From: an uncultured candidatus Porisulfidus sp.
GTDB taxonomy: Bacteria > Pseudomonadota > Gammaproteobacteria > Poriferisulfidales > Poriferisulfidaceae
DNA: 64,000 nt
Direction: 5' to 3'
NCBI GenBank assembly: GCA_965204575.1
Contig: OZ241993.1
Coordinates: forward strand, 1,312,001-1,376,000
Shown here: positions 26,619 to 43,998 of the stretch, in pieces
How positions within the stretch are numbered: position 1 is the stretch's first letter
How the letters are laid out: each line of letters begins with the position of its first letter
The notes under the pieces: model-generated
The model's input: only the letters and a program-made list of their open reading frames with translations
What the model was told of the DNA's origin: nothing
Database searches by the model: none
Made by a program: the position numbers and the translations under genes

Positions 26619-27887
26619 TTGTTTGAACGGGTTTCCGCCGACCCTGCCTGCGTGCTGGTGCACGTGGCGGTCGGTGCAGACACGCGGGCGGAAAATCCCG
26701 AGCGCGAAGAATTCGTCGAGTTGGCGCGAAGCGCCGGCTTGATGCCGCAGGCGCAACTGAACTTCCGGCGTCGCGCCCCTCATCCTCGCTTCTACTTCGG
26801 CCGGGGCCAGGCCGAACAGCTTCGACAGAGTTGCGTGCAGCACGACGTTCAACTGGTGGTCGTCAACACGGACTTGAACCCAAGCCAGGAACGCAACCTG
26901 GAGGCGGAACTGGAATGCCGGGTGCTGGGACGCACCGGATTGATCCTGGATATTTTTGCGCAGCGTGCCCGGTCGCACGAAGGCAAGTTGCAGGTCGAGC
27001 TCGCGCAACTGAATTATCTCTCGACCCGATTGGTGCGCGGCTGGAGTCACCTGGAACGGCAGAAGGGCGGCATCGGGTTGCGCGGACCGGGCGAGACTCA
27101 GCTGGAGTTGGACCGTCGGCTGCTGACGCAGCGGGTCCAGACTTTGCGGCGGCGCCTGATGCTGGTCGAACGCCAGCGCAACCAAAGCCGCGCGCGCCGA
27201 CGACGGGCGCAGCTGTATCATGTCGCGTTGGTCGGCTACACCAATGCCGGCAAGTCGACCTTGTTCAATGGCCTGACCGGTAGCGACGTGCCGGCCGCGG
27301 ACCAGTTGTTCGCGACACTGGATCCGATACATCGCCGCCTTCGCCTGGATAAGGGACGGGACGTTGTCCTGTCCGACACCGTGGGATTCATTCGCGACCT
27401 GCCGGTGGAACTGGTGCGTGCGTTTCATTCGACTTTGGAGGAATTGCAGGAATGCGACCTCTTGCTGCACGTGATCGACTGCAGCGATGAAGGGCGCGCG
27501 GAACATGCGGCGCAGGTGAGGGAAGTGCTGGCGCAAATCGGCGCGGGGCAGGTTCCGGTTATCGAGGTTTACAACAAGGTTGATCGCCTGGAAGCGGTGG
27601 AGCGGATACCGGAAGCGCCGAATCGCGTGTGGGTGTCGGCGCGCACGGGCGCGGGAGTGAGCGCATTGCGCGCCCGGTTGTTGCAACGGATGCAGGCGGA
27701 AGAATCCGAAGTCCACCTTCGATTGCCGCTGGCGGCCTATCCGCTTCGAGCGGAATTGCACCGGGTCGGACAGGTCGAGGAAGAGAAGTTCACGGAAGAG
27801 GGGGAATGCGAGATGCGCCTGAGGCTGCCGCTGCCGTACCTGACACGTTTCGAGAAATTCCGGACGGCGACCGCGAAGGCATCATGA
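26619..27887 (+). CDS. hflX: Ribosome rescue GTPase HflX
   Basis: GPGETQLE, GYTNAGKST, DTVGF, NKVD. Confidence 0.96.
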   Translation: MFERVSADPACVLVHVAVGADTRAENPEREEFVELARSAGLMPQAQLNFRRRAPHPRFYFGRGQAEQLRQSCVQHDVQLVVVNTDLNPSQERNLEAELECRVLGRTGLILDIFAQRARSHEGKLQVELAQLNYLSTRLVRGWSHLERQKGGIGLRGPGETQLELDRRLLTQRVQTLRRRLMLVERQRNQSRARRRRAQLYHVALVGYTNAGKSTLFNGLTGSDVPAADQLFATLDPIHRRLRLDKGRDVVLSDTVGFIRDLPVELVRAFHSTLEELQECDLLLHVIDCSDEGRAEHAAQVREVLAQIGAGQVPVIEVYNKVDRLEAVERIPEAPNRVWVSARTGAGVSALRARLLQRMQAEESEVHLRLPLAAYPLRAELHRVGQVEEEKFTEEGECEMRLRLPLPYLTRFEKFRTATAKAS

Positions 27888-28082
27888 GATCCGGCGCCCG
27901 CCGACGGGCTTTTGCCTCCGAATCCCGACCGGGGTCCTGTCCGGGATGAACACGAAGCCCGGCGGGCCGCTTCTTCCGGCAGGAGGTTTTTTCGCCCGGA
28001 AGCGCACCCGCCCTGCTGCCGCATGCCCGCCGGACGCTCGCCCGTAAGTCGCTCCGGGCATTTCGCTGGCGCAGGCTTCGCG

Positions 28083-29684
28083 ATGCTGGCGGGAAGATTC
28101 GGCTCGGTTTCCGGCTGGCAGCGCGCGGCTCTCGCCACCGCCCTTGGCATCCTGACCACGACGGCGTTGCCGCCCGGCAACCTCCTGGCGCTGCTGGTGG
28201 TTGCCCTGACCGGATTCGTCTGGCTGATTCATGCCAGTCCTTCGCCGTGGCGGGCCTTGGGCGTGGGCTGGTGGTTCGGATTCGCCCACTTCCTGACCAG
28301 CCTTTTCTGGATCGGCCCGGCCCTGAGCTTTGGCTCCCCGCATCTCGGCTGGCTGGTCGCGCCGGCGATGGTTGGCCTGTCGGCGGGTCTCGCCCTGTTC
28401 CCGGCGCTTGTCGCTTTTGCCGCGCGGCTCCCGGCGTTGCCCATTGCCGGGCGCGTGCTCGCCGTTGCCATTGCCTGGACCGTCTCGGAGTGGCTGCGCG
28501 GCAATATCCTGAGCGGATTCCCGATCAACCTCCTGGGTTCGGTCTGGACGCCATCGCTCGGGATGATCCAGGGCGCCGCATTTGTCGGGGTCTATGGACT
28601 CAGTTTCGTGACGGTCCTCGCCGCCGCCGCGCCTGCAGCGCTGGCCGTGCCGGAAGCGGAGCGTCTTCCTGGCCGCCGCCTGCGGCTGTTTCCTGCGGTG
28701 GCGTTCGGCTTGTTGGCAGCGGTTTGGGTGGGTGGAGAGATCCGCCTGGCACTGGCACCTGAACTGCCCGGGGCCGGCCCTCGCCTGCGCCTCGTGCAGA
28801 GCAACATCGAACAGAGGCTCAAGTGGGAAGATGAGATGCGCGAGGCGGCGCTGGATCTTTACGTCCGTCTCTCGCGCCGGTCGGGGCATGAAGCGGTGGA
28901 TCTCGTGGTCTGGCCGGAGTCGGCGGTGACTTTCTATCTTGACGAGGACCCGTCGTTGCGCGAGTTTCTCTCGCAGGCTGCGCCGCCGGGCGGGCATCTC
29001 GTGACCGGGACATTGCGGCGTACCCGCGTCGAAGATACGATCAATTTCTGGAACAGCCTCCAGACGCTGACGCCCTCTGGCGCGGTCGTAGCCAACTACG
29101 ACAAGCACCACCTGGTGCCTTTCGGGGAATACAACCCGTTGCGCAGGGTCTTCCCCTTTCCGGCTCTCGCCTACGGGTCACAGGACTACTCTGCCGGGCC
29201 GGGGCCGCGTAGCCTGCACCTGCCCGGCCTGCCGCCTTTCAGCCCGCTGATTTGCTATGAGGTCATCTTCCCGGGCATGGTCATCGATGATTCCGGGCCG
29301 GAGAGGGAGAGGCCGAAGTGGTTGCTGAACATCACCAACGACGCCTGGTTCGACGGCACGGCCGGGCCCCATCAACTGTTCCAGGCGGCCCGCCTGCGGG
29401 CGGTCGAGGAGGGCTTGCCCCTGGTGCGGGTGGCAAATACCGGCATTTCTGCGGTCGTTGATGCCTACGGCCGCGTGGTGGGGCAGATCGCGCAGAGGGA
29501 GGTGGGCGTGCTCGACATCTCGTTGCCGGGGGCGTTGGCCACCCTGCCGCCGCAGGCAAGGTTCGGCGACTGGATCCTTGCGGTTATGCTGCTTCTCGCC
29601 GCCGCCGCCTTGCTTGCGCAACGTCTGCGGGAGCAACCGGGAACCGGGTCGGGCGCCGGGAGAGTTCCGAATCTGCGCAGCTGA
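28083..29684 (+). CDS. lnt: Apolipoprotein N-acyltransferase (start uncertain: 27912, 28023 or 28083)
   Basis: Multiple TMs; EWLRG..GFP, WPES, YDKHHLVPFGEY, ICYE, NDAWF, RAVE.G. Confidence 0.92.
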   Translation: MLAGRFGSVSGWQRAALATALGILTTTALPPGNLLALLVVALTGFVWLIHASPSPWRALGVGWWFGFAHFLTSLFWIGPALSFGSPHLGWLVAPAMVGLSAGLALFPALVAFAARLPALPIAGRVLAVAIAWTVSEWLRGNILSGFPINLLGSVWTPSLGMIQGAAFVGVYGLSFVTVLAAAAPAALAVPEAERLPGRRLRLFPAVAFGLLAAVWVGGEIRLALAPELPGAGPRLRLVQSNIEQRLKWEDEMREAALDLYVRLSRRSGHEAVDLVVWPESAVTFYLDEDPSLREFLSQAAPPGGHLVTGTLRRTRVEDTINFWNSLQTLTPSGAVVANYDKHHLVPFGEYNPLRRVFPFPALAYGSQDYSAGPGPRSLHLPGLPPFSPLICYEVIFPGMVIDDSGPERERPKWLLNITNDAWFDGTAGPHQLFQAARLRAVEEGLPLVRVANTGISAVVDAYGRVVGQIAQREVGVLDISLPGALATLPPQARFGDWILAVMLLLAAAALLAQRLREQPGTGSGAGRVPNLRS

Positions 29685-29893: not shown

Positions 29894-30282
29894 CCCCGGT
29901 CTGCGAGCTAACGCGATTTTGAGGTTTTTCGGAGGCCGGAGACCCGCCGTCCCGGATTTTTGGGCGGAAAGAGGCCAGTCCCGCCTGATTTCACGATTGT
30001 TCCGGCATGAACGCGCCGGGCTCTGCGGGCCGTCCCAAGGGCCACATGCGGCAGGAGGTCCGGGCGTGCCGCAGGCTAGGCGGTGGCTCATTCGCCCCAG
30101 TGCCCGGTGCAGCTGATGCTGGGAAAAACTGGATCGATAATGGGACTTCCGGTCGGTTGCTGTTGATTCACCCAGTGGGTGAAACGCTTGCACCGCCAGG
30201 TTCAACTGCTTTGCGCAGTTATTGCGCGGTCAGCCAGGGTTTCTCTTCCTTGTCTCTCGCTGTGTTGACTCGCGGGTCAGGG
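29894..30282. mobile_element. MITE-like internal-deletion derivative of the IS1380 element at 31631-33522
   Basis: Degenerate IRs CCCCGGTCTGCGAGCTA and TGACTCGCGGGTCAGGG; 29894-30119 resembles 31631-31899 and 30121-30282 resembles 33362-33522. Confidence 0.85.
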
Positions 30283-30437: not shown

Positions 30438-30782
30438 ATGCGGAAATTATCCGTTTTATTTGCTGTCGTGATCTGTACGCCTGTTTTCGCGGGCAGCACC
30501 CTAGCCCCGAAACCAGACACGGCGTATCTCTGCAAGGAGAGCTATGAGACTGGATCCAATGCGAGGCATTCCTGCAACGGAGAGTCCTTTCACACGGTTA
30601 ATGACACCGACGCGAGAGTGGCCGCACACTGCGAGACCCACACGGCGAGGGAATGGCATCCCACGGAAATTACCCTCAACGCCGACTATTGCGGCGACCT
30701 GAGCAACTGCAACGGAGTCCTGACCAAGGGGCCGTGCAAGGATTGCGTGGACAAGAGGACGATGCGGAAGGTCGAGTGTTGA
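30438..30782 (+). CDS. Secreted Cys-rich mini-protein A (114 aa; CVNH-repeat-like)
   Basis: AAGGAGG RBS; Sec signal; 8 Cys in the mature part; LSNCNGVL motif; C-terminal Cys. Confidence 0.8.
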   Translation: MRKLSVLFAVVICTPVFAGSTLAPKPDTAYLCKESYETGSNARHSCNGESFHTVNDTDARVAAHCETHTAREWHPTEITLNADYCGDLSNCNGVLTKGPCKDCVDKRTMRKVEC

Positions 30783-30989
30783 CCGCAACGTTGACGCTGC
30801 GAGCAATGTCTCGCGGTTCCGGTTGCCGCAAGTGCTGCAGTGCCGGAAGTCGGCCAGTAACCGGTTGCTAATTCTGCCGGCCGCCGTCGGCGTGCTGGGC
30901 GGAAACCGTGCACCAAGCCGGGCCTCTTCAAAGGCCCGCCTGTCGGGTATACGCTGAAGGGCAACAGCAGGATCATTCTCCGGGCAAGA

Positions 30990-31623
30990 ACCTGGAGAGG
31001 GTCACGGTCCGGTCTGCACCCTGCTGGTGTTCATCGACGATGCCACCAGCGAACTGCTGGCGTTGCGCTTCGTGCCGGTGGAGGACACCCGGGCTATCTG
31101 GGCCTGTTCCGAGAGTATGTGTGCCGCTATGGCCGGTCGGGCATCCTGTACACCGACCGGTACAGCGTGTTCCGGGTCAACCAGATCGGCAAGGAGGACT
31201 GCGAGACGCAGTTCGACCAGTCCTGGTCTGCGAGGGACTGGACGGGCAGGTTCGGGTGTTCCGCCGGGAGGCCGAGTTCGACTGGGCGCACGAGTTGCAG
31301 GTGACGGTGCTGAGGGAGAGCCGGTCGCGGGTTCAGGATGCGGACACCAAGGACCTGAACCGGGTCGTGAATCAAAAACTGGCCCAGGCCGCCGGCCCGA
31401 GCTACGTGCCGCTGCCGGATTATCCGTGGCGGAAGATGGGTCAGGTGGCGGTCGCGCTGGCTGAGGCGCGAAACGCCCAATCCGCTTCTTCGACCGGCGT
31501 GAATCCTTGAAAAATCCAGCCGATGAGCGGCTCGGCGCTTGACCCGGGGGGATTTCCATGAAATCCCGGGCTGCCGCCCGCCAATCCAACCGCAAAAGGG
31601 GAAATTTTAACTTTGTGTTGACA
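30990..31623 (+). pseudogene. Degraded ISNCY/IS1202-like transposase remnant with its right end
   Basis: CTLLVFIDDATS..LRFVP, YTDRYSVFRVN; frameshifts; terminal GGGGAAATTTTAACTTTGTGTTGACA. Confidence 0.75.
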
Positions 31624-31630
31624 CGGCCTG

Positions 31631-33522
31631 CCCCGATCCGCGAGCTAAGGCGATTTTGAGGGTTTTTCGAAGGTTGGAGGCTCGCCGCCACGGATTTTGA
31701 ACTGGAATGTGGCGAACCGGGGTGGATTTCTGGCGGAAAGAGGCAAGCCTCGCCCGATTTCCCGGTTTTCCGGCATGAGCGCGCAGGGCTTCGCAGGCCG
31801 CCCGCGGGCGGCCTCAAGGGACTCCATGCAGCAGGAGGTCAGGAGGTGTCGTAGGCCAGGCTGCGGCTCATTCGCCCCAGCGCCCGGTGTAGCTGATGCA
31901 CCCGCGACGGCTGGAACCGCAACCGCTGCACGCGGGCATGCCGCACCACTCGGGCCACGAGGGTCACCCAGTGTCGGCGCACCTGCTTCATCCGCGCCCA
32001 CAGCCAGTCCCGGCCGAGCGCGCAACGCCGCAGCACGGCGTTGAGGTTCAGGCTCAGCACTGCCAGATGCCACCAGGCGGCGTTGGCCCCGAACCGGCCC
32101 GACGGCATCAGGCCGCCGGCCAGGTCGTCCTTGAGCACCGCGTGCACCTCCTCGCCCCGCCCGCAGCGTTCATGCGCGAAGCGCACCAGTTCCGCCGTCG
32201 ACATCGCCAGCCCCGCGCCCTCGTCGGGTTCGACCGGATGCGGCAGGTTGGTCAGATAGACCCGGCAGCGCCAGGCCGGGGCGCCGTCGCGGGTCGGCAA
32301 CTCGTCGGGGTCGACGCCCAGCTCGCCCGGCAAGGCGCGCCGGGTGGCGACATGGCGCAGCAGCTGCCCGGCCTGCTTCGGCCGGGCGTTCCAGTCCGAG
32401 ACGTGATCCAGCTCGGCGCAGTGCAGCGCCGAGCCGAGGAGCGGCTGCCACCAGTCCTCCGGCGCCCGCGCCAGGGACTGCTTCATCGCCTTGCCCAGGT
32501 CCGCCGACACCACGAAGCCGATCACCCCGAAGCGGCGCAGCGCCGCCGGACGCGATGCCGGATCGTTGCAGAACCGCACTAGCGTCTTCTGGTAGCCGGC
32601 GCCGTCGCTGCGCACCCACACCCGCCGGATCGTCGGCGGCAGACCCGACACCACCCGCTCCAGCAGCTCCCGGTTGCGCACCCCGGCCGGCACGTTGCCG
32701 TCCCGGAACTCGGTGCCCAGCACCATCCCCAACTCCGGGCAGAACACCGACAGCGGCTGGTAGCCGCGCTCCCCCGGCACCTTGCCGGTCGCGCTGCGGT
32801 ACGTGGGCCGGGCCTCGCGCTTGCCCGACGCCACCACCGTCGCGTCCAGGTCCAGGGTCAACTCCTCCAGTTGCTGAACCTCGATCAGGCGGTCCCGCAG
32901 CCGCTCGGTCACCGCCTCGATCCGCCGCAACTCGTTCGCCGGTTCCGGCACCACCGCCCGCCCGGGCACCCGCGCCTGCGCCGCCGCCTCGTCCTGGAAA
33001 CGCCCCAACCAGTCCAACACCGAGCGCGCCGACGGAAAGGTCCGCTTGCGCCCGCCCCGGAAGCGCCGCGCCAGCTGCGCCGCCGGGATCCCCAGCACCG
33101 CCTCCTCGTAGGCGCGCACCAGCCGGCACAGGCTGGCGTCTTCCTCCAGCGCCGCCACGTCCGAGACCCGCTCGTGGCCGACCACGTTCAGCAACAGCAG
33201 GCTCAGCATCATCTGCCCGTCGTGCCAGCCCTGCCGGCCGGCCACCGGCACCGGCAGGTCGTGAAGCACGCCCGTGCGGCGCAGCAACTCCAGCCACAAG
33301 ACCAGCCCGCCGTGGGCGCTGGTCCGGGTCAGGTTCGGGTCGCCGTCGAGCGCGACCAAAGGGGAAAAACTGGACATATAATGAGACTCCCGGTTGGTTG
33401 TTGTTGACTCACCCAGTGGGTGAGTCGTCTAGCACCACCAAGTTTAACTGCTACACGCAGTTATTGCACAGCCAACCGGGACCTTTCTACTTCCTTTTAC
33501 TCAGGTAGCTCGCGGATCGGGG
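31631..33522 (-). mobile_element. IS1380-family insertion sequence, apparently intact
   Basis: Perfect 17-bp IRs (CCCCGATCCGCGAGCTA at 31631-31647 and 33506-33522) and a 5-bp target duplication GCCTG (31626-30, 33523-27). Confidence 0.92.
31839..33377 (-). CDS. IS1380-family DDE transposase
   Basis: TSAHGGL, LDLDAT, GYQPL, FRDGN, RSDGAGY, RCGRGEE...LK.D, FGANAAW. Confidence 0.9.
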   Translation of the reverse strand: MSSFSPLVALDGDPNLTRTSAHGGLVLWLELLRRTGVLHDLPVPVAGRQGWHDGQMMLSLLLLNVVGHERVSDVAALEEDASLCRLVRAYEEAVLGIPAAQLARRFRGGRKRTFPSARSVLDWLGRFQDEAAAQARVPGRAVVPEPANELRRIEAVTERLRDRLIEVQQLEELTLDLDATVVASGKREARPTYRSATGKVPGERGYQPLSVFCPELGMVLGTEFRDGNVPAGVRNRELLERVVSGLPPTIRRVWVRSDGAGYQKTLVRFCNDPASRPAALRRFGVIGFVVSADLGKAMKQSLARAPEDWWQPLLGSALHCAELDHVSDWNARPKQAGQLLRHVATRRALPGELGVDPDELPTRDGAPAWRCRVYLTNLPHPVEPDEGAGLAMSTAELVRFAHERCGRGEEVHAVLKDDLAGGLMPSGRFGANAAWWHLAVLSLNLNAVLRRCALGRDWLWARMKQVRRHWVTLVARVVRHARVQRLRFQPSRVHQLHRALGRMSRSLAYDTS

Positions 33523-33596
33523 GCCTGACGGATGGTGAGTCTGTATTATTTTCCGTGCTAGAATCCCATGGCTCAATTCATTTGCGAGGCATGGAC

Positions 33597-33938
33597 ATGG
33601 ATTTCAAGATTTTCTCCCTGGCGGCTTTATTCTCCGCCGCAGTGTTGCTGGTTTCCGTGTTGTCGGTCCCTGCGGGACCGGCGCACGCTTTCACGTCAAC
33701 CCCGGCCAATAAGGATCAAAGAACCATAGTCCAGAAGTGCCGTGAAGATTTCGACCGTTCTTCCGCAGGTTCAAGTTGTTCCAAGGTGACTTTCACGAAA
33801 GTCATGAACTACCGGTGCCGGATCGACTACACCTGCAGCAAGGCCGACGGCGGCACCCGCAAGGGCTGGAAGACGATTGACCCGGACGATTCCGCGTCTC
33901 TGAAAAACTGCGACGGCTGGCTCAAGACGAGTTGCTGA
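33597..33938 (+). CDS. Secreted Cys-rich mini-protein B (start 33591 or 33597)
   Basis: Signal ending AHA; C-x12-C-x12-C-x5-C-x24-C-x7-C; LKNCDGWLK. Confidence 0.85.
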   Translation: MDFKIFSLAALFSAAVLLVSVLSVPAGPAHAFTSTPANKDQRTIVQKCREDFDRSSAGSSCSKVTFTKVMNYRCRIDYTCSKADGGTRKGWKTIDPDDSASLKNCDGWLKTSC

Positions 33939-34016
33939 TTCGCCTGCGGCCCTGGCGCAAGAGGGGCTTTCGTTGCGCGGCAACCGGCGGCCGCCGGTGC
34001 GCATGACGGGTGTCGG

Positions 34017-35204
34017 TCAGCTGTCGCGAAGGGCCTCGACCGGATCGAGCCGGGCGGCCCGGTAGGCGGGGTACAGGCCGAAGAAGATGCCGGCGGCGCT
34101 GGCCACGCCGACCCCCAGGCCGACGGCCAGCATCGAGACCTGGAACGCCCAGTCCGTAATCTGGCAGATGACCCAGGTTGCCCCGACTCCTGCCCCGACT
34201 CCGACCACGCCAGCCGCCAGCGACAGGACGATCGACTCGATCAGGAACTGGCCCTGGATATCGGCGCGGCGCGCGCCCAGGGCACGGCGGATGCCGATCT
34301 CCTGTCGTCGCTCGGACACCGAGACCAGCATGACGTTCATGACCCCGATGCCGCCGACGAGGAGCGAGATCCCGCCCACGGAACCCAAAAGAAGCGCGAA
34401 CAGCCGCATCTGCTTGTGCATCTGTTCGATCAGGTGCTCCGCGCTTCGCACGCGCACCTCGACGCCGGGCGACAGGCGCCGGAAGTAGTCGGCAATCTTC
34501 CTTTCCGCCACGACGTGATGGGTCCCCGGGCTCATGCGGGCCGTGATGTTGCGGATTTCCGGGCGGCGAAACACCCGCCGGGCGGTCGACAGGGGGATGA
34601 TGACGGCGCGGCTGACATCGAAGTCGCGCATGCCCTGCGGGGTTCGCCGCAATACGCCGACGATGGTGTACGCGTTCCCGGCCACCTCGAGGGCCTCGCC
34701 GATGAGGTTCCGGGTTCCGGCGTGGCGCAGGTCCGCGGCGATCTCCGGGCCGATGACGCAGAAGTACCGGCGCAAGTCGAGGTCGGAGATGTGGCGGCCG
34801 GATTCGAGTTTCAGCTTGTTGAGGTCGGGCAGGGTGGCGGTGGCCCCGATCAGCACCGCGTCTTTCGGTGCCCGCCGGGGCAGGGAGATCTGCGCGTATG
34901 AGTCCGCATAAGGAGCCGCCGCGGTGATGACGGAAAGCCTCGCGACGCCGCTGGCCTGCTCCGGGTCGATCGCGGAGAGGTCGCCCGAAGGACCGCGATG
35001 GTCAAGGCTGATGGTCAGGATGTCCGTGCCCAGTTCCTGGAATTGCTCGAGCGCCTCGTCCCGGGCGATGAGGCCCAGCGAAATCATCGCGATGACCGAG
35101 CCGATTCCGATCGCAATGCCGATCAGCGCAAGCAGGGTGCGTTGCTTGGCGGCGAGCAGGCTGCTCGCTGCTTCCTTGAGATTGGCCTGGACGAGAGGAA
35201 GCAT
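34017..35204 (-). CDS. MacB/FtsX-type ABC transporter permease
   Basis: RTLLALIGIAIGI, periplasmic domain, GGIGVMNVMLVSVSER..EIGIRRALGA, PAYRAARLDP. Confidence 0.93.
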   Translation of the reverse strand: MLPLVQANLKEAASSLLAAKQRTLLALIGIAIGIGSVIAMISLGLIARDEALEQFQELGTDILTISLDHRGPSGDLSAIDPEQASGVARLSVITAAAPYADSYAQISLPRRAPKDAVLIGATATLPDLNKLKLESGRHISDLDLRRYFCVIGPEIAADLRHAGTRNLIGEALEVAGNAYTIVGVLRRTPQGMRDFDVSRAVIIPLSTARRVFRRPEIRNITARMSPGTHHVVAERKIADYFRRLSPGVEVRVRSAEHLIEQMHKQMRLFALLLGSVGGISLLVGGIGVMNVMLVSVSERRQEIGIRRALGARRADIQGQFLIESIVLSLAAGVVGVGAGVGATWVICQITDWAFQVSMLAVGLGVGVASAAGIFFGLYPAYRAARLDPVEALRDS

Positions 35205-35216
35205 TCTGCCTTCCGG

Positions 35217-35963
35217 TCATTCGTCTCCCGAAACGGGGCCCGGCCTCTCCCGGGGCTCGACTTCGTTCAGGACGCCGTCGCGAATGCGGGTGCGCCGGGC
35301 ACACTGCTGGGCCACTTCCCGGTCATGCGTGATGATGATCCCGGTGAGCTGCTCCTCGGCGTTCAGCCGGATGAACAGTTGCATGATCTCGTCGCTGGTC
35401 TCGGCATCCAGGGCGCCGGTCGGTTCGTCAGCCAGCAGGATGTCCGGTTCGCCGACCAGGGCGCGGGCGATGGCGACGCGTTGCCGCTGCCCTCCGGACA
35501 TTTCGCCGGGGCGATGGCCTGCGCGGTCGCCGATGCCGACCTTGTCGAGCATTTCGCAGGCGCTGCGCTGCGCGACCGCCGAACCCGTGCCTCGGTACAC
35601 CAGCGGAACCGCCACATTCTCCCAGGCCGTCAGGCGCGGAAGCAGGTGGAAAGACTGGAACACGAAGCCGATGCTCGCGTTGCGCAGGGCGGAAAGATCG
35701 TCGTCGTCCAGCACGCCGACTTCCCGCCCATTCAGGGAAAAGGAGCCCGAATCCGACTGATCCAGAAGGCCTAGGATGTTCATCAGCGTGGACTTGCCGC
35801 AGCCCGACGGCCCCATGATCGACAGCAGGTCACCCGGGTACAGGTCGAGGCATACCCCTCGGAGGATCTCGGTGACGATCGGCCCCGTGGCATAACTCTT
35901 GCGGATGTCGACCAGGCTGAGTATGGCCTCCGCCGCCGGGCTCACGCTGTCCCGCCGGGTCAT
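35217..35963 (-). CDS. MacB/LolD-type ABC ATPase
   Basis: GPSGCGKST, GFVFQ, SGGQRQRVAIARAL, DEPTGALD, ITHD. Confidence 0.95.
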   Translation of the reverse strand: MTRRDSVSPAAEAILSLVDIRKSYATGPIVTEILRGVCLDLYPGDLLSIMGPSGCGKSTLMNILGLLDQSDSGSFSLNGREVGVLDDDDLSALRNASIGFVFQSFHLLPRLTAWENVAVPLVYRGTGSAVAQRSACEMLDKVGIGDRAGHRPGEMSGGQRQRVAIARALVGEPDILLADEPTGALDAETSDEIMQLFIRLNAEEQLTGIIITHDREVAQQCARRTRIRDGVLNEVEPRERPGPVSGDE

Positions 35964-37810
35964 CGCGAGGGTCCCGGCATCAGGATTTCCTGGCCGGTCG
36001 TGATGCCGCTGACGATTTCCACTGAGTCCAGGGTGGTCATCCCGATCTCCACCTCTACCGGTCCGATTTCGCCGGAATCCCGGTCGCGGACCCGCAGCCA
36101 GGACCGGCCCTCGCGGAGTTCCACCGCCTCGACCGGGACCAGTAGCGCGTCTTCCTTTTCATAGACCAGGACCTCGACCCGGGCGGACATGCCCAGGCGC
36201 AGCAGCCGGTGCTGTTCCTCCGTCAGGGTTTCCACGACGGCGTTGACCTCGAACAGCGGCTGCCGTCGATGTTCGCGCACGGGAATGGCCTGCGAGGAAA
36301 TACTGTCGACCTTGCCGTGCAGCACGGTCCCGGGGAAGGCGTCCCCCACGATCCGCGCCGGTTGTCCCGGACGAATCCGCGTGACGTCCACCTCGTCCAC
36401 ATGGACGACCACGGCGATGCCGCTGGTGTCCCCGATGGTCAGCAGCAGGTCGCCCCGATCAACCAGCGCGCCCTTGACCAGCTTGTCGCTGGCCGTGCCC
36501 GTCTTCGCCTCTGCGCCGTCCTTCCGCCTCGGATGCATCACCACGCCGGCCGCCGGCGCGGTGACGGCGGCCTTGCGCAGGATTTCCTCGATGCTTTCCA
36601 GCTGGGTGCGCGCGTTCTCCAGTTCTAGCCGCGCTACCTTCAGCCCGGGGACGCCTTTGTCCAGAACGGCCTGAAGTTCCTGTTCCGCCGTCTGCAGGTC
36701 CAGCGACTGGTTGCGGTGTTCCCGCTCGGCGGCCTCGTACTCCGAGGTGGGGATGATGCCCCGCTCCAGCAGGAACGCGGTTTCCTCAAGCCGGCTGTTC
36801 AGGGATTCCAGCTTGAGCCGGCTTTTGCTCACGGCCTGGCGGACCCGGGATACCTCGGCATGGTTGGACCAGTTCTCGAATGTCTCGACCTGTTCGCGCG
36901 CCTTGAGGTAGGTCACTTCCGCCTCGCGGCGGGAAATCTGGACCTTGGCCACGTCCATGTCCAGCAAGGCCTGGCCCTGGGCGACCCGCTGGCCGGGGCG
37001 GACATGCACCGCGCCCACCTTTCCCTTCATCGGGGCGGCCACCTCGACTTCCCGCTTCGGCGCCAGTTGCCCGGTCATGGCGACCGTGGACGAGATCCGC
37101 CCGGGCTCGACCACCAGGCTGCGGGCCTGTTCCGGGGCGCCGTGCGCCGTGCCTGCGATGTCGCTCCCGGAAGCTGGGAGACCCGCGTCCGGGCGGCTGT
37201 CCCAGAAGTACAGCCCGATCGCGACGAACAGGACCGGGACGGCCAAGGCCGCGCCCACCCGGATGGTCGTGATCTTCTTCGAGGCGACGCCCAGTTTCTG
37301 GTTTGTCTCCTCCAGTTCCCGGTAGGCATTTCGGAGTTCGGCGTGCTGTCCCTCCACCTCCTTGGCCAAGCGGAGTTCCTTCTCCCGCAATTCCCGGATC
37401 TCGGAGATGTCGTTGAACATCACGATGACGCCGGTCCAGAGGGCTTCGCCGTCCCGTTCCTCCTTCAGGTACGTCGTCGCCACGGACAGGGAGCGGGTCT
37501 CGCCGCCGAGCGTCGCCTCGACCACGCGCTGGTGGACTGCGGTGGAGTCGTAGACGGCCTCGAAGATGATGTCGAGAAACTGGTCCAGGCCCTCCTTGTC
37601 GGCAAAAACCTCCCCGAACCGGCTTCCCACGACCGCGGCGCTGTCCAGGCCGAAGATGCTCTCCGCCGCCGCGTTGAAGCTGGTAATGATTCCGTCGGTG
37701 TCCAGGGACATGACCCCGCTGGCCACATTGTCCAAGATGTTCCGGTAGATCAGGCCGGAAGCCTCGCGGCTTTCGTCGGGAAGGGGAGGGCTGGAGCGGC
37801 GCGCGTTCAC
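35960..37810 (-). CDS. Membrane-fusion (MacA/HlyD-like) adaptor with N-terminal PAS domain
   Basis: About aa 20-137 PAS-like (ILDNVASGVMSLDTDGIITSFNAAAESIFG...VMFNDISE), coiled coil, one TM, then lipoyl/hairpin/beta-barrel MFP motifs (VDEVD..IRPGQ, LRLGMSA). Confidence 0.88.
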   Translation of the reverse strand: MNARRSSPPLPDESREASGLIYRNILDNVASGVMSLDTDGIITSFNAAAESIFGLDSAAVVGSRFGEVFADKEGLDQFLDIIFEAVYDSTAVHQRVVEATLGGETRSLSVATTYLKEERDGEALWTGVIVMFNDISEIRELREKELRLAKEVEGQHAELRNAYRELEETNQKLGVASKKITTIRVGAALAVPVLFVAIGLYFWDSRPDAGLPASGSDIAGTAHGAPEQARSLVVEPGRISSTVAMTGQLAPKREVEVAAPMKGKVGAVHVRPGQRVAQGQALLDMDVAKVQISRREAEVTYLKAREQVETFENWSNHAEVSRVRQAVSKSRLKLESLNSRLEETAFLLERGIIPTSEYEAAEREHRNQSLDLQTAEQELQAVLDKGVPGLKVARLELENARTQLESIEEILRKAAVTAPAAGVVMHPRRKDGAEAKTGTASDKLVKGALVDRGDLLLTIGDTSGIAVVVHVDEVDVTRIRPGQPARIVGDAFPGTVLHGKVDSISSQAIPVREHRRQPLFEVNAVVETLTEEQHRLLRLGMSARVEVLVYEKEDALLVPVEAVELREGRSWLRVRDRDSGEIGPVEVEIGMTTLDSVEIVSGITTGQEILMPGPSR

Positions 37811-39330
37811 GGGGCCGCCTCCCGGTCTACGTCGCGGATCTCGATGTTCCAGGACTCCAGCGTCGTCCCCAGGGTGCGGTCCAGCGAGGTCACGGCCGTC
37901 TGATGGGCGATGATCGAGTCCAGTTCGTTGTTTTGCGCCGACACCAGGTCGTCCTCGAAGGTGACCAGGCGGAAGTTCGACGACAGGCCGAGGCGCAGTT
38001 TTTCCCGTTCGACCGCCACCTTCTGTTCCACGAGTTCGCGGGCAGAACGCGCGAGTTCCACCTGGCGGTGGGACAGTTCCACTTCCCGAAGCGCGTTGCT
38101 CACCTCGATGTCGACGCGCTGGCGCAGGTTCGCGAGACTGTTCCGGGCCTTCCGGAGGAGGGTCGTGGCCTGCACGTATTTCTGTTTTCTGGGGTCGGCC
38201 GCCGCCCAGATCGGAATGCTGAGGTCGAACCGGATGGCATGGTCGGTGCCGTCGAAATGGCCGGCGCCGCCCGGTGTCGAATCAATGCCGGCCAACCGGG
38301 CCGACAGCGTCGCCGAAAGGTCCCACAGGCGCTCGCTCTCGGCCGCCTCGACCCGGGCTTCCGCGATCTCGACGCCGAGGATCGCCTGCAGGTAGTCCGG
38401 GCGGTGCTGCCGGGCCTCCCCGATGCGGTCCGCCATTGCAGCCGGCCTCGGTTTGTCGGGAAGCGTCTCCGAGAGGGTGTCGGTCAGCCGGATCCGGGTG
38501 TGGCTGTCGATGTCGAGGACGTCGGTCAGCGCCAGGCGGGCGGCATCCAGGCGGTTGCGCGCGGCGACCAGTTGCAATTCGCGGCCGGCGATGTCGGCTT
38601 TCGTCTGGACCACGTCCCGCTCCGCCATCCGCCCGCTGCGCACGAGCAGTTCGTTCACCTCGAGCAGGCCCTGGGCGCGCTGGAGGGACTGGCTGCGGAT
38701 TTCTGCGCGATGTTCAGCCTGCATGTAGTCCCGATAGACATTGATGACCGACGTGACGACATCGATGATCGCCTGCTTGAGCGTGAGAACATTGCTCTTT
38801 TCCACGGCCTGGGCGATCCGCACCGAGGCCGTGTTGACCCCGACGCCCGCGCCGCGCAGCAGAGGCTGGGTGAACCTGAACACCAGCTCGTTGGAGTACC
38901 GCGACCGCGAGGGCGCGTCGCCGCCCCGGCGGATGCCGTCCCAGTCGAGGTTGAATTCCCCGCCGGTGGGGATGCGCAGCATGACGGTCGATCCCACGCC
39001 GGTTGCGGCAAGGTCCGAGGACGGCGCGGTGTGCGTCCGGTCAAAGTGAGAATCGAACGTCACATGCGGGCGGAACTTGTTCTCCGCCACTCGCAGGGCG
39101 AAACGTTCCGTGATGCGGTCCAGCCGCGCGCCGATCAGTTGTCGGTTGTTGCGGAGGGTCAGGAGGACAGCCTCTTCAAGAGAAAGGTCGAGGCGATTCG
39201 GTGGATCGCTTCCAGGCTCCGCCCCCAGCCCGGGGACGGAGGAACAAGACAGGCCGATTGCGACAATGGCAGGTTCGATCAAGCATCGCCTGCAACTTCG
39301 GCATGGTGCCTTGGGGGCTGCTGAGAACAT
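37807..39330 (-). CDS. TolC-family outer-membrane channel
   Basis: LSLEEAV...NN..L, FTQPLLRG, RPD, LSIPI, E.EKL.LG.SS; first gene of the exporter operon. Confidence 0.88.
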   Translation of the reverse strand: MFSAAPKAPCRSCRRCLIEPAIVAIGLSCSSVPGLGAEPGSDPPNRLDLSLEEAVLLTLRNNRQLIGARLDRITERFALRVAENKFRPHVTFDSHFDRTHTAPSSDLAATGVGSTVMLRIPTGGEFNLDWDGIRRGGDAPSRSRYSNELVFRFTQPLLRGAGVGVNTASVRIAQAVEKSNVLTLKQAIIDVVTSVINVYRDYMQAEHRAEIRSQSLQRAQGLLEVNELLVRSGRMAERDVVQTKADIAGRELQLVAARNRLDAARLALTDVLDIDSHTRIRLTDTLSETLPDKPRPAAMADRIGEARQHRPDYLQAILGVEIAEARVEAAESERLWDLSATLSARLAGIDSTPGGAGHFDGTDHAIRFDLSIPIWAAADPRKQKYVQATTLLRKARNSLANLRQRVDIEVSNALREVELSHRQVELARSARELVEQKVAVEREKLRLGLSSNFRLVTFEDDLVSAQNNELDSIIAHQTAVTSLDRTLGTTLESWNIEIRDVDREAAP

Positions 39331-39385
39331 GGCGCGCGAGCGGGCGGTGAGGCACCCCTCCGCTACGCGGGGTCCGTCAGGTGAA

Positions 39386-39595
39386 TCAACAACCCAACTT
39401 GACCAAGCCGTTGCAGTTTTTCACTTGAAAAGCATTTGTCGGGCCCGCTGTCATTCCGCTCTTCACGAACACTGTTTCTCTGACCACGGCTTTGGAGTGC
39501 ATTGCCTGAATAGGGCATGGGTTGAGGACTGTTCCAGGAAACTCTCGTCCCGACAAGTGGAAGCCGCAGAACTACTTTCGCAGTTTGGGCATCAT
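39386..39595 (-). pseudogene. Frameshifted, leaderless mini-protein paralogue D
   Basis: One frame reads C.NCESSSAASTCRDESF...QC; another ends VKNCNGLVKLGC-stop (stop at 39386-88). Confidence 0.65.
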
Positions 39596-39644
39596 GTTCT
39601 CTTCTCCTGGTCCTCAACAGCCTGCCTGGGCTTGCCGCGCATGG

Positions 39645-39992
39645 TCAGCAACTCCCGACCTTCAGCACCAACCGACCGCAGTGGTGCAGGTTGCCGACAT
39701 CCCCTTTCGACACGCCGGTGACGCTGGCATCCCCACGGTTATCGCCGGTAGTGATCTGGTACTTGCATGTGGCGAAGAAATTGCACTTGTTGTGTTCCAC
39801 CCACGTATTCTTCAAATAACAGGTCTGGCTGGCAGGCGAACTGCTCCATGCCGAAGTGCAGTCACCGGTTGTGACGGACGGCGCGGAGGTGAACGCGTGC
39901 ACCGGCTCCGCAGGAATCGACAACGCGGAAGCCAGCAGCAATGCGGCGGAGAAAAAGGCCGCCAAGGAGAAAATATTGAAATTCATGCTCAT
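39645..39992 (-). CDS. Secreted Cys-rich mini-protein C
   Basis: Leader close to that of B; C-x12-C-x11-C-x5-C-x28-C-x9-C; GAGG RBS. Confidence 0.85.
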   Translation of the reverse strand: MSMNFNIFSLAAFFSAALLLASALSIPAEPVHAFTSAPSVTTGDCTSAWSSSPASQTCYLKNTWVEHNKCNFFATCKYQITTGDNRGDASVTGVSKGDVGNLHHCGRLVLKVGSC

Positions 39993-40772
39993 ACCTCACG
40001 AGTGTATTCGTCAAGGAACTGGACAATAGGGATTCTAGCACGGAAAGCGGTTTTACGCGCCCTTTCGAGCCCTTTCTTATGGAAAGTGGTGGGGTCGCTC
40101 GGCAAAGCTGACTTATCAAGATACTGATACTTGTGGACATGGATCACCCGTCAAGTTAGGTATATATCCCTATCTATCAGAAACCCAACCCTACGGGTTT
40201 GGGTTTTCTGATGCAACTGTATAGAGAAAAGTCGAATGCGGCCCGTTCGCTTCGCTTGCTCTGCCGAGAACTGCTGGCAGAATACGCCCGGCATCGTCTC
40301 CGGCAGTTAGTCTTTGCGGTAATTGGCTGTCGCTCACTGTCGGCAGTATCCAACCGACATCATGGCTCCAGTCCAACCCGACTCGCAAAGCAAGGTTATC
40401 CAATGCCGGGCAGTCGGAAATCTGGCGGCAGGTGCACAAGCGCACCCGACCGAGGGCAGGGATCGGGTTTGCCGTCTGCCCGGCAGGGAAGCACCGCACG
40501 GCGGCCGGTCTCGGCCGCCGCGTCTTGGAAAACTCGAACTCGCGGTTATGAGCGTCCGCAATCGGGCAAGGGAACCCTGCCCGGATGCGCCTTTTTGCCT
40601 GTCTATTGGAGTGCGCATCGAGTTTTCCATACACCCCCTCACGGATCGAGGGCGGGCCGGCGCATCCAGCAGGGTTTTGGCTAGCCGGGGTGCTTCCCTT
40701 TCGGGCTATCTGGGCGTAAAAATTTTCTGAAAAATAAAAATCTGACCCAGATAGCGGTCTGACCTGCCGCCG

Positions 40773-40828
40773 GGCGCGAGCCGTGATAGGAAACCTATCA
40801 CCGGGCGGCCCGGATCAACCGGCTGGCC
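40773..40828 (+). repeat. 56-bp direct repeat, copy 1, with core palindrome GTGATAGG-AAA-CCTATCAC
   Basis: Identical to 41746-41801. Confidence 0.9.
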
Positions 40829-40927
40829 GGCTCGACTCCCTGCGCCCGGCGCGGGTCGGCGCGGGGCGTGGGCTGGGGCCGTGCTTCGCGAAGCGTGCAG
40901 ACCGGGCGGCAGGGGCGCGTCCGGCCA

Positions 40928-41218
40928 TTAGCAGACCTGAACCCCCAGGGCTCCCTTGCAGTTGTACAGTTTGTCGGCTTCCTCCGGCTTTGTCCTCTTG
41001 GCCGTGGAGGATAGCGTTTCATTTACCGAGCGGCACCACGCCATGATTTTGCAGTAGCCGCCGCCGACATCCGCATATTGAATATCGGTGCAACTCTGAT
41101 AGGCGGAACTCGCCTCAAACTTCTCCTTGCAGATGTCCACAAGGGGCCTGGGTTTCGGTGCCAGTCCGTATGCCGGAGACAAGGCCAGCATCAGGATCAG
41201 CGTGATGGTTTTCTTCAT
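40928..41218 (-). CDS. Secreted Cys-rich mini-protein E (96 aa)
   Basis: AGGAGG RBS; MKK signal peptide; LAPKP as in A; C-x12-C-x12-C-x5-C-x24-C-x8-C. Confidence 0.87.
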   Translation of the reverse strand: MKKTITLILMLALSPAYGLAPKPRPLVDICKEKFEASSAYQSCTDIQYADVGGGYCKIMAWCRSVNETLSSTAKRTKPEEADKLYNCKGALGVQVC

Positions 41219-41523: not shown

Positions 41524-41745
41524 GCGGATGGCAACACAACCTAGACAAATCGCTGGCCAAGCCTGGCCGCGAAGCACACAATTCCATGCGCAAAGCGCAA
41601 CACAACCTAAACACCGCACGGAGAGCGTCTTACCAGAGCACCCACCCTGGAGAACTCAATTTGGAGACACTCTCGGCTTTGATACCGAACGACAAAACGG
41701 CAGAAATCGACCTAGAACCGACAAATCGGCTAGGGCATCAATGCC

Positions 41746-41801
41746 GGCGCGAGCCGTGATAGGAAACCTATCACCGGGCGGCCCGGATCAACCGGCTGGC
41801 C
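41746..41801 (+). repeat. 56-bp direct repeat, copy 2
   Basis: Identical to 40773-40828. Confidence 0.9.
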
Positions 41802-41811
41802 AGATCGAACC

Positions 41812-42157
41812 TGTCAAACCAAAGCTGAAATTTCCCCTTTTTCGGTTGGGCTGGCGAGCGGCAGCCCGGGATTTCATGGAAATCCCCCCGGGTCAAGCGC
41901 CGAGCCGCTCATCGGCTGGATTTTTCAAGGATTCACGCCGGTTGAAGAAGCGGATTGGGCGTTTCGCGCCTCAGCCAGCACGGCCGCCGCCTGACCCTTC
42001 TTCCGCCACGGATGATCCGGCGGCGGCCCGTAGCTCGGGCGGGCGGCCTGGGCCAGCTTTTGATCCACGATCCGGTTCAGGTCCTTGGTGTCCGCCGCCT
42101 GAACTGCGTCTCGCAGTCCTCCTTGCCGATCTGGTTGACCCGGAACACGCTGTACCG
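41812..42157 (-). pseudogene. Second, inverted remnant of the ISNCY/IS1202-like element
   Basis: Begins TGTCAAACCAAAGCTGAAATTTCCCC; reverse complement matches ~31158-31623 with an internal deletion. Confidence 0.8.
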
Positions 42158-42797
42158 TTGGCGGGCGCGTTACCAGGCGAAGGGGCTGCGGGGGCTTCGT
42201 CCGCGCAGCCGGCGTCCGCGGCGTTGCCGGCGGAAGCGTTGGGCGCCGGAGCTGACGCGGCGGCTGATCCAGTTGCGCCAGGCCCATCCGGGCTGGGGCA
42301 AGCAGAAGCTGGCGGTGCTGCTGCACCGCGAGGGCCACGCGGTCTCGGTGAGCACGGTCGGGCGGATGGTCAGCGAGCTGTTGCGACGGGGCCGGATCGC
42401 ACGCAGCCCCCGAAGAACCAAGCGCAGGCGGGCCTCCCGCCCGCGTCCGTGGGCGCAGCGCGGCTGGGGCGGGCTGGAGACGTGATCGGCAAGGTGGTGC
42501 AGGTCGACACGATGACGGTGACGCCCTATTACGGCTTCCGCTTCAAGCAGTTCACCGCGGTCGACGTGGCCAGCCGCTACTTGGTCGGGGCGCTGTACAG
42601 CCGGGCCACCGCGGCGTGCGCGGCCCGCTGCACGGAAATGGCGGCGGATCTGGAGGGGGCGCGGCGGCAGTGGGCCGAGTGGGAGGACACCTACAACCGG
42701 GTCCGGCCGCATCAAAGTCTCGGCCTGAAGACCCCGATTCAGTATATTAGGTCACGATCGTCAAGCAGGGCGTGTTCCCAAATGTCCTGAGCCCACA
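42147..42797 (+). pseudogene. IS481-family transposase remnant
   Basis: TLYRWRARY...GL.PRSRRP, HPGWGK.KL, VQVDT, FTAVDVASRY, YNRVRPHQSLGLKTP; frameshifted and deleted; probable end ...ATGTCCTGAGCCCACA. Confidence 0.75.
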
Positions 42798-42861: not shown

Positions 42862-43998
42862 ATGGCTTGGAACGACAACGGTGGAAACCCGTGGCAGCGC
42901 AATGCGCGGCAGGGGCCGCCGGACCTGGATGACCTGTTCGGAAACCTGTTCCGGCGCCTGTTCGGTTCGGGCCGCAAGGGCGGCGGGGGCGGGGGCGGCC
43001 GCAAGTGGTCGGTCGGCACCGGCAGCGTCCTGCTCGTCCTCCTGATCCTGTGGCTGCTGTCCGGCTTCTACATCGTCGAGGCCAGCGAGCGTGGCGTCGT
43101 GCTCCGCTTCGGCAAGCACGAGCGCACCACCATGCCGGGGCCGGGATGGCACATCCCGTATCCGGTCGAAAGCGTCGAGGTGGTCAACGTGACCGGCAAC
43201 CGGAGCGTGGAGAAGCGGACCACCATGCTGACCCAGGACGAGAACATCGTCGAACTCAAGTTCTCGGTGCAGTACCGGCTCAAGAATGCCGAAGACTACC
43301 TGTTCAACGTCGAGAACCCGGACATCGAGTTCGACCGCGCCTGCCGCTTCAAGAGCACCATCTGCGGCGTGCTCGACAGTGCCATCCGCACCGTGGTGGG
43401 GCGCAACAACATGGACTTCATCCTGCGCGAGGGCCGCGCGGAAATCGCCAGCCGGACCATGGCGCTGATGCAGGAGATCCTCGACGCCTACGGCACCGGC
43501 ATCGAGATCCTGACGGTCAACCTGGAGGACTCGCAGCCGCCGAACGCGGTGCAGGACGCCTTCCAGGACGCGACCAAGGCGCGCGAGGACATGGAGCGAT
43601 TCAAGAACGAGGCGCAGGCTTACGCCAACGAGGTCCTGCCGCAGGCCCGCGGCGAGGCCGCGCGGATGCTGGAGGACGCCAAGGCCTACCGCGCCCAGGT
43701 GATTGCCAACGCCGAAGGCGAGGCGTCCCGCTTTACCCAGTTGCTGACCGAGTACCGCAAGGCGCCGGAAGTCACCCGCCAACGCATGTATCTGCAGGCA
43801 GTGGAGTCGGTCCTTTCCAATTCTTCCAAGGTGATGGTCGATGTCGACAAGGGGAGCAACATGCTGTTCCTGCCGCTGGACCGGATCCTGGAGCAACGCG
43901 GCCCGGCCCGGCCGCCGAATTCTTCATCCCTGGACCGGCAGGGAGGAAGTTCCTCAGGTTCCGGAAGTCTCGCCCCACGCTTGAGGGAGGGACGCTGA
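42862..43998 (+). CDS. hflK: FtsH modulator HflK
   Basis: MAWN...PW...GPPDLD, SPFH domain. Confidence 0.96.
   Translation: MAWNDNGGNPWQRNARQGPPDLDDLFGNLFRRLFGSGRKGGGGGGGRKWSVGTGSVLLVLLILWLLSGFYIVEASERGVVLRFGKHERTTMPGPGWHIPYPVESVEVVNVTGNRSVEKRTTMLTQDENIVELKFSVQYRLKNAEDYLFNVENPDIEFDRACRFKSTICGVLDSAIRTVVGRNNMDFILREGRAEIASRTMALMQEILDAYGTGIEILTVNLEDSQPPNAVQDAFQDATKAREDMERFKNEAQAYANEVLPQARGEAARMLEDAKAYRAQVIANAEGEASRFTQLLTEYRKAPEVTRQRMYLQAVESVLSNSSKVMVDVDKGSNMLFLPLDRILEQRGPARPPNSSSLDRQGGSSSGSGSLAPRLREGR

Follow-up and report, generated by a model that had tools for sequence, protein, structure and literature searches.

Export of small proteins by pumps of the MacB type is already known, as is lipidation of the Aat type. 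In the Aat system of enteroaggregative and enterotoxigenic Escherichia coli, as reported (PMC7943197), the Lnt homologue AatD acylates the N-terminal Gly of CexE and AatPABC exports it, and a Sec-exported cargo of 10 kDa is placed on the cell surface via a MacB/Lol-like pump with a TolC-like duct. A review of MacB (PMC5985334) describes how MacAB-TolC takes the Sec-exported and DsbA-oxidised enterotoxin STII from the periplasm, names STII and the 10 kDa dispersin as protein cargo of MacB-type pumps, and gives 10 kDa as a possible upper bound for such cargo; pumps of this type also move glycolipids (DevBCA), pyoverdine (PvdRT) and antibiotics, and export by DevBCA requires the adaptor DevB to have its cytoplasmic N-terminus. 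Here we analyse a locus of an uncultured candidatus Porisulfidus sp., in a window of 64,000 nucleotides (the whole stretch of DNA that was analysed; positions 1,312,001 to 1,376,000 of contig OZ241993.1). The genome is a single contig of 1.82 Mb with about 65% G+C, of which the window is a part. An insert of about 15 kb between hflX and hflK hosts the genes of a MacB-type pump together with those of small, Cys-rich secreted proteins, hereafter called mini-proteins, and with moderate confidence we take it for a horizontally transferred secretion island whose pump would export these proteins.

The genes of main concern are as follows, with positions counted from the first nucleotide of the window; mature N-termini were predicted by eye with the -3/-1 rule.

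34017..35204, minus strand: MacB-type permease; MacB_PCD PF12704 at 5e-30 and FtsX PF02687 at 7.8e-22, matching the permease half of the NCBIfam MacB model
35217..35963, minus strand: ABC ATPase of MacB/LolD type as a separate gene; MacB model 234.7 bits, LolD 231.8 bits
35960..37810, minus strand: periplasmic adaptor (membrane fusion protein) with an N-terminal cytoplasmic PAS domain; PAS at residues 22-135, then HlyD_D23 and HlyD_3; RND_mfp above its cut-off
37807..39330, minus strand: TolC-like outer membrane factor; Pfam OEP in 2 stretches, 8.7e-36
30438..30782, plus strand: mini-protein A, 114 amino acids (aa); mature about 96 aa, 8 Cys, predicted mature N-terminus Gly
33597..33938, plus strand: mini-protein B, 113 aa; mature about 82 aa, 6 Cys
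39386..39556, minus strand: decayed mini-protein relic D, an open reading frame (ORF) of 56 aa without signal peptide and with its middle part missing; shares its strand with the TolC-like gene and precedes it
39645..39992, minus strand: mini-protein C, 115 aa; mature about 82 aa, 6 Cys; precedes the TolC-like gene, in the same orientation
40928..41218, minus strand: mini-protein E, 96 aa; mature about 78 aa, 6 Cys
27912..29684, plus strand: lnt2, an accessory apolipoprotein N-acyltransferase paralogue with Pfam LNT_N and CN_hydrolase; its true start is probably downstream of 27912

All four pump genes were confirmed with Pfam and NCBIfam and form an intact operon, packed with two 4-nt overlaps and one 12-nt gap. 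The components of a MacB-type pump are present, namely permease domains, a MacB/LolD-type ATPase, an adaptor and a TolC-family duct, with the ATPase unfused. The PAS part of the adaptor is kept in five congeners, and in the 80 related loci described below nearly all matches begin by query residue 23. B is convergent with the permease gene, with 78 nt between both stop codons. The original prediction, which had been made from the sequence alone, gave the coordinates of A to E, the TolC-adaptor-ATPase-permease operon with its PAS domain, and the placement of B, C and D relative to that operon, and it was correct in all of these.

The island is like Aat in having a MacB/LolC-like permease, a LolD/MacB-like ATPase, an adaptor, a TolC-like duct and an Lnt-family acyltransferase, with nearby genes for Sec-dependent cargo of about 10 kDa, and both lie on mobile DNA. 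As expected for an Aat-type locus, the linked Lnt-family gene is distinct from the housekeeping Lnt, a likeness at the family level. The island differs from Aat in the cytoplasmic PAS domain of its adaptor, in a candidate cargo that is a 6-Cys module resembling CVNH (cyanovirin-N homology) and not dispersin, in the predicted N-terminal Gly of only some of this cargo, in an lnt2 that accompanies only the closest clade of cassettes and whose nearest plasmid relatives are Lnt copies of metal islands, and in its hosts, which are uncultured marine lineages known as metagenome-assembled genomes (MAGs) and not Enterobacterales. Because the putative cargo is CVNH-like, its homology to dispersin or CexE is unlikely. 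What the proposal shares with MacAB-TolC and STII is a tripartite MacB-type pump and a small, Sec-exported and oxidised periplasmic protein; E. coli MacB, however, is a fused ATPase and permease, works with the housekeeping TolC and is not encoded beside its protein cargo, whereas the island has a separate ATPase gene, its own duct gene, a PAS adaptor and candidate cargo genes flanking the operon. DevBCA-HgdD and PvdRT-OpmQ are likewise dedicated tripartite exporters of the MacB family encoded with their pathway, and the N-terminus of DevB is a precedent for control via the cytoplasmic part of an adaptor, but they lack a PAS domain and transport a glycolipid and a siderophore in place of proteins.

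By their sequences, A, B, C and E are real paralogues, in each of which a signal peptide precedes a domain of roughly 80 residues that contains 6 to 8 Cys. The mature proteins have 78-96 residues and 8.5-10.5 kDa, a size comparable to that of the protein cargo reported for MacB-type pumps (PMC5985334), and share the motif C-x3-[WFY]-x2-S-[SP]-A-x3-C ... C-x5-C ... L-x-N-C-[ND]-G-x-L-x3-C; in the A subtype the third Cys is missing and a compensating Cys stands further on. Pairwise BLASTP linked A with B (6e-5), A with E (2e-8), B with E (9e-12) and B with C (4e-6), and gave no significant match for A with C or for C with E. The 5' ends of C and B are 80% identical (inverted repeat I2). We regard D as a relic because it has no signal peptide and has retained only the C-terminal 'NCNG...C' part and a weak N-terminal match (profile E 4.5e-4 and 0.016); the broader family profile did not match it. 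BLASTP and profile searches therefore bear out the originally predicted five paralogous genes with D as a pseudogene, and we could add a sixth copy, F, 86% identical to E, in the same genome (G000:C1:1095323-1095613), which lies 250 kb off and not near the pump. F adjoins a gene with a PLOD-type (collagen lysyl-hydroxylase-like) glycosyltransferase domain (L005:32-1030, at about 1.094 Mb) and is also near a galE-like gene, so called from sequence alone without a family search, and near a gene for a secreted protein of 140 aa without Pfam match (L005:1050-1472).

Some other assignments were considered and rejected. The mini-proteins are not precursors of ribosomally synthesised and post-translationally modified peptides (RiPPs) or of bacteriocins, because they have no leader/core layout and are folded domains at high model confidence, and no maturation protease is encoded; nor are they classical lipoproteins, because no lipobox precedes a Cys. 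A weak profile match at 49916-50413 was dismissed as an Arg-rich out-of-frame ORF. The original prediction had stated that no RiPP-modifying enzyme is present; this does not quite hold for modifying enzymes in general, since the Lnt-family paralogue lnt2 at 27912-29684 had been missed.

Searching 1.84 billion proteins with a profile of the mature part gave 280 cluster representatives (50% identity) at E<=1e-3 and 36 at E<=1e-10. Most members have about 100-115 aa with a signal peptide, and some have 2-6 tandem domains, these tandem forms being repeats of the whole module. For the mini-proteins of the window and 60 family members, Pfam and NCBIfam contain no meaningful model. The CVNH model PF08881 matched 0/5 window proteins and 0/60 family members even at E<=1, with the gathering score never reached, and found nothing in the source genome; a sequence profile search of the PDB with the mini-proteins gave only chance matches (E about 1). 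The relationship became visible with an AlphaFold (AF2) model of B, built from 60 relatives, with pLDDT of 93-98 over residues 41-113 and a modelled architecture of helix, three-stranded sheet, short helix and hairpin. In a Foldseek search of the PDB with this model, cyanovirin-N or CVNH proteins occupied 16 of the 40 listed rows, including ranks 1-11 (best E 1.6e-2, prob 0.96). VIA-align against 48,161 chains placed five CVNH proteins at the top (Z 6.8, 6.6, 6.0, 5.4 and 4.9), followed by an unrelated chain at Z 3.9; the best match was a circularly permuted cyanovirin with 55 aligned residues and a root-mean-square deviation of 2.6 Å, its Z of 6.8 being below 8 and thus indecisive by the tool's own standard. 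The three best clusters in a protein-language-model Atlas were also CVNH, at a weak score of 0.78 that serves as a lead only.

For a direct comparison of profiles, a CVNH reference alignment of 21 proteins was prepared from one PF08881 protein, found in 1/401 genomes, and its collected relatives. hhalign of the 60-member family profile with these 21 proteins gave Prob 90.5% and E 1.4e-6 over 51 columns, which correspond to one repeat, and E 0.002 with the single CVNH protein; residues 56-111 of B cover exactly one CVNH repeat, including the Cys pair of the repeat's disulfide. At the level of sequence profiles, the mini-protein domain is a remote homologue of one CVNH repeat. With the PF08881 lectins the mini-proteins share this one aligned repeat, in which both the 'N-x-(D/N)-G-x-L' turn and the two Cys of the first disulfide are matched, whereas CVNH proteins consist of two strand-swapping repeats in two lobes; in the mini-proteins a single repeat aligns, with a helix, one sheet and one hairpin. 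The family is best described as a helix plus one CVNH repeat with a three-disulfide lock, and since neither the Pfam score nor the two-repeat architecture is reached, we have filed it as a remote single-lobe relative of CVNH and not as a member. The original prediction had supposed a panel of lectins, toxins or host effectors; the remote CVNH homology backs the lectin guess, and the mini-proteins may bind glycans by analogy with that family.

We then turn to the evidence that connects the mini-proteins with the pump. Search of 185,579 species genomes with an alignment of six adaptors gave 105 relatives, from which 80 loci, all in MAGs, were retained; by their record titles they are assigned to Gammaproteobacteria, Alphaproteobacteria, candidatus Binatia, candidatus Poriferihabitaceae, Arenicellales, Thermodesulfobacteriota, Acidobacteria and candidatus Porisulfidus. 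The full four-gene pump is present in 77/80 loci. Members of the mini-protein family occur within 10 kb in 35/80 loci (33/80 at E<=1e-5) and in all 10 loci with an adaptor identity >=54%; often there are several of them, and often they are tandem-domain proteins directly flanking the operon. When five cassette genomes (19.3 Mb) were searched whole, 30 of the 37 domain matches fell inside the seven cassette stretches of 22 kb each, or 0.8% of the DNA, and in a further 165 kb of other DNA the profile matched only the four window genes at E<=1e-5. An even sample of the class contained mini-proteins in at least 5/401 genomes and a full-length PAS-adaptor in at least 2/400, both with adjacent mini-protein genes, these counts being floors because few candidates were scored per genome. 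Among 16 genomes of the genus, the cassette is present in 6 and mini-proteins in 5; four have both (adjacent in 3), one has only mini-proteins and two have only the cassette. Since both partners are rare and are co-located across phyla, a functional link between mini-proteins and pump is supported at the sequence level.

The window adaptor is 55-60% identical to those of MAGs labelled Alphaproteobacteria and 35-47% to those of four congeners, which points to transfer between lineages. Likewise, the A, B and C subtypes are 37-71% identical to relatives in other cassettes (37-54% for the A type and 51-71% for the C type, in cassettes of other organisms) against 21-30% among themselves, so that the panel is old and travels as a set, and is not the product of recent local diversification. 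The number of domain matches per genome ranges from 1 to 13. Several MAGs carry two or three cassettes (L099 and L101 on one contig; L043 and L044; L045 and L049; L077, L112 and L121), and in one MAG two cassette copies are about 12 kb apart.

Another type of small secreted protein was found beside the pump. Small Calx-beta proteins with a signal peptide and a single domain (160-210 aa) flank 26/80 cassettes, counted with a hidden Markov model separate from that of the mini-proteins; PF03160 was matched by 10/10 of those scanned, 9 of them above the gathering score. Among the 47 loci without mini-protein at E<=1e-5, 21 carry Calx-beta proteins instead. Examples are L109:14243-14767, L097:7446-8057 and L099:13985-14512; 8 of the 26 Calx-beta loci also have mini-proteins, and large Calx-beta proteins occur in 10 cassettes. 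The aggregation factor of sponges has domains of this Calx-beta type (PMC5400394). Beside the pump of some cassettes with neither type, there are ORFs rich in Cys with signal-peptide-like N-termini (8-11 Cys; L107:7779-8306, L054:13959-14471 and L081:13831-14406), for which Pfam gave no match. From these sequences we read the cassette as a pump with interchangeable small secreted cargo.

As to lipidation, lnt2 scores 303.6 bits with TIGR00546 (cut-off 132.9) and conserves the motifs WPE, K and ICYE of the Glu-Lys-Cys catalytic triad. It is the second Lnt of the genome, 31% identical to the other copy (C1:1622476-1623903); each of the four congeners searched has a counterpart of that other copy (30-34% identical to lnt2), and lnt2 itself has a close orthologue only in G007 (81%). 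Paralogues of lnt2 with 55-65% identity stand beside five related cassettes (L043, L044, L045, L049 and L046), in three of which they are 0.1-0.3 kb from a mini-protein gene, and the linkage is restricted to the closest clade of cassettes. A mature start with Gly, followed by a Pro-rich linker, was predicted by eye for A and for 12 of the 19 readable mini-proteins of the Lnt-linked loci. For distant cassettes without Lnt, a crude script predicted mostly Gln, Ala or Ser as the first mature residue; it was unreliable and dropped most of the Lnt-linked group, so that its tally was left unused for that group. The linked lnt2 points to a possible Aat-like lipidation step, in which mini-proteins may be acylated by lnt2. 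Accessory lspA-lnt pairs are also found on plasmids of the Roseobacter group in copper and metal-homeostasis clusters (L131, NZ_CP086933.1 64665-66703), and these plasmid copies are nearer to lnt2 (42-44%) than the housekeeping Lnt is (31%). An AatD lineage for lnt2 by way of these plasmid relatives was considered and found unsupported, because the relatives are not beside pumps.

Our proposal for the working of the island, which we hold to be somewhat probable as a whole, is the following. The mini-proteins would cross the inner membrane through Sec, lose their signal peptide and be oxidised in the periplasm. The MacB-type pump would then take them up from the periplasm or from the inner-membrane leaflet and release them at the cell surface or into the medium by way of the duct that the island encodes. 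Before this, lnt2 may N-acylate the cargo that begins with Gly (A and most relatives in the closest cassettes), which would lead to lipid-anchored display on the surface, as with AatD. The cytoplasmic PAS domain of the adaptor might gate the ATPase on an intracellular signal. Outside the cell, the modules could attach to glycans, either those of other microbes or those of the host, which is probably a sponge, and act as adhesins or effectors. A farther-reaching version, which we put forward only tentatively and consider rather doubtful, is that phylogenetically distant sponge symbionts share by horizontal transfer a PAS-gated pump module, in one clade with its own Lnt-type lipidating enzyme, and that it displays or releases interchangeable single-lobe cyanovirin-like lectins and Calx-beta modules with which bacteria bind glycans or matrix of the host and so are recognised as residents and not as food.

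Several findings weigh against this proposal. No family member is present within 10 kb in 45-47 of the 80 cassettes, and 26/80 have neither the mini-protein family nor Calx-beta. Four genomes (G002, which is 98% complete, G139, G361 and G416) have one mini-protein gene each and no PAS-adaptor that we could find, the last three having ordinary adaptors only, without PAS. Some copies are far from any cassette, namely F, two G009 genes with three domains each and five clustered genes in G439. This cluster (G439:C3:129391-139172, L129) comprises A, B and C subtypes with no pump within 32 kb, and two cassettes are located elsewhere in that genome. At about 30 kDa, the tandem forms next to distant cassettes are larger than the 10 kDa suggested as a possible upper bound of MacB cargo. 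Besides three OEP genes, including the TolC-like gene of the island, the genome has two secretin genes, which make another outer-membrane route possible, and the data equally allow a cargo that uses other routes. For the acylation step, B, C and E have a predicted mature start of Phe or Leu, B having an alternative site before Gly, and the nearest plasmid relatives of lnt2 are beside lspA in metal-resistance clusters and not in Aat-like operons. For the lectin part, none of the 60 members reaches the Pfam CVNH model, the fold Z is below 8 and there is a single lobe. The expectation in the original prediction that exporter homologues would co-occur with mini-proteins therefore has a mixed outcome: it agrees with the 35/80 loci and especially with the 10/10 closest ones, and it fails for the loci without them, of which 21/47 carry Calx-beta, and for the four genomes without a PAS-adaptor.

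Other explanations were weighed with the same data. The loci without mini-protein and Calx-beta neighbours, the genomes that have mini-proteins and no PAS-adaptor found, and the glycolipids, pyoverdine and antibiotics moved by MacB-type pumps as cited above (PMC5985334) would suit a pump that exports a lipid, a glycolipid, a siderophore-like compound or an antimicrobial, with the mini-proteins as periplasmic or surface partners that bind its substrate or a glycan of the cell's own envelope. We consider this unlikely. The ORFs and the Pfam and NCBIfam scans of the island revealed no biosynthetic genes for a small molecule, and the variable neighbours are always small secreted proteins of differing folds (CVNH-like, Calx-beta and Cys-rich ORFs), for which interchangeable cargo is a better fit than a fixed accessory. 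Less probable still is a role of the mini-proteins as toxins resembling bacteriocins or as antimicrobial effectors, with a pump that serves mainly for self-protection, as with the ABC/FtsX transporters of the lactococcin-972 type. Multi-copy, small, secreted and Cys-rich proteins are typical of competition factors, and the ATPase matches TIGR03608, the model of the lactococcin-972-type exporter, at 4.5e-54, but its 183 bits fall short of the cut-off of 254.85; fold and profile indicate a lectin repeat and not a known bacteriocin, a TolC-like duct with an adaptor suits expulsion across the outer membrane, and the subtypes are conserved across organisms and do not turn over quickly.

Hitch-hiking, in which mobile DNA carries the genes of the pump, lnt2 and the mini-proteins side by side without any shared function, appears to us just as improbable as the toxin explanation. 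It would account for the IS481-like and IS1380-like insertion sequence (IS) elements that bound and interrupt the island, for the position of A in an IS-flanked segment missing at this site in contigs of sister strains, and for the different chromosomal sites of the cassette in congeners. Co-location, however, persists at adaptor identities of 34-46%, across classes and phyla as labelled in the MAGs, and with differing gene orders and tandem-domain versions, and 30/37 copies lie in the 0.8% of DNA mentioned above; neutral linkage should decay over such distances, and hitch-hiking is therefore disfavoured. Export of the mini-proteins by the pump, with the probability given above, is the explanation that we retain.

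In literature titles and the openings of abstracts, we found no description of a PAS-bearing adaptor of this kind, of a single-repeat CVNH-like cargo family, of Calx-beta as alternative cargo or of the cross-phylum spread among MAGs; supplementary gene lists may include them. If the proposal is true, protein export by MacB-type pumps, and perhaps the recently found glycine-lipoprotein pathway, would reach beyond a few enteric pathogens into several phyla of uncultured marine symbionts, and control of such a pump through a sensor domain of its adaptor would be a mode so far unreported. The unannotated family would then represent a minimal, disulfide-locked half of the cyanovirin lectin fold, which is of relevance to lectin evolution and as a small glycan-binding scaffold. 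Contact of symbionts with their host in sponges has so far been approached mostly through 'eukaryote-like' repeat proteins, and the proteins described here would be concrete candidates for such contact. The habitat of the present organism is probably a sponge host, in view of sponge-derived taxon names among the cassette-bearing records and the word content of sponge metagenomes; 44-54% of the sampled words of the stretch are present in sponge-metagenome runs, and no RNA data set was listed as containing it.

The flanks and mobile elements of the insert are as follows.

26619..27887, plus strand: hflX, left flank; Pfam GTP-bdg_N/M, MMR_HSR1 and HflX_C; in congeners its immediate neighbour is hflK
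29894..30238, no strand assigned: deleted copy of both ends of the IS1380-like element, resembling a miniature inverted-repeat transposable element, upstream of A; direct repeats D2 and D4-D7 match 31631-31899 and 33362-33480
31002..31623, no strand assigned: IS481-like fragment, an inverted copy of 41812-42157; inverted repeats I1 (293 nt, 92%) and I3 (57 nt, 100%)
31631..33480, minus strand: IS1380-like element; DDE_Tnp_1_4 transposase at 31839-33377, PF13701 3.4e-19
41528..42790, plus strand: degenerate IS481-like transposase frames at the right end of the insert; rve_3, HTH_32 and LZ_Tnp_IS481 in two different frames
42862..43998, plus strand: hflK, right flank; Band_7 and HflK_N; 80-95% identical in congeners

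The comparison with congeners agrees with the earlier view that the island splits hflX from hflK: the distance between these genes is 159-209 bp in two congeners and 0.8-5 kb in three others, and no lnt is present between them in any of the five. From left to right, the insert consists of lnt2, the deleted IS1380-like ends, A, the IS481-like fragment, the full IS1380-like element, B, the minus-strand operon with the TolC-like gene at its upstream end and the permease gene at its downstream end, then relic D, C and E upstream of the operon on the same strand, and the decayed IS481-like element. The Rfam search gave 0 matches in the window; promoter-like sites numbered 0 in 30000-41500 and terminator-like sites were at the level of shuffled sequence, which is uninformative on operon structure. 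Contigs from two other sequencing runs (about 97% identity) link 29831 straight to 33541 and omit 29832-33540, so that in these sister strains A and the IS1380-like element are missing here and lnt2 is directly followed by B. The sister-strain contigs carry A at the end of other contigs. Within 29832-33540, A is bordered by the deleted and the full copy of one IS1380-like element in direct orientation, and a unit like a composite transposon probably brought A to its present site. Both A and B have the same end of the IS1380-like element upstream of them, at about 200 nt and about 120 nt respectively.

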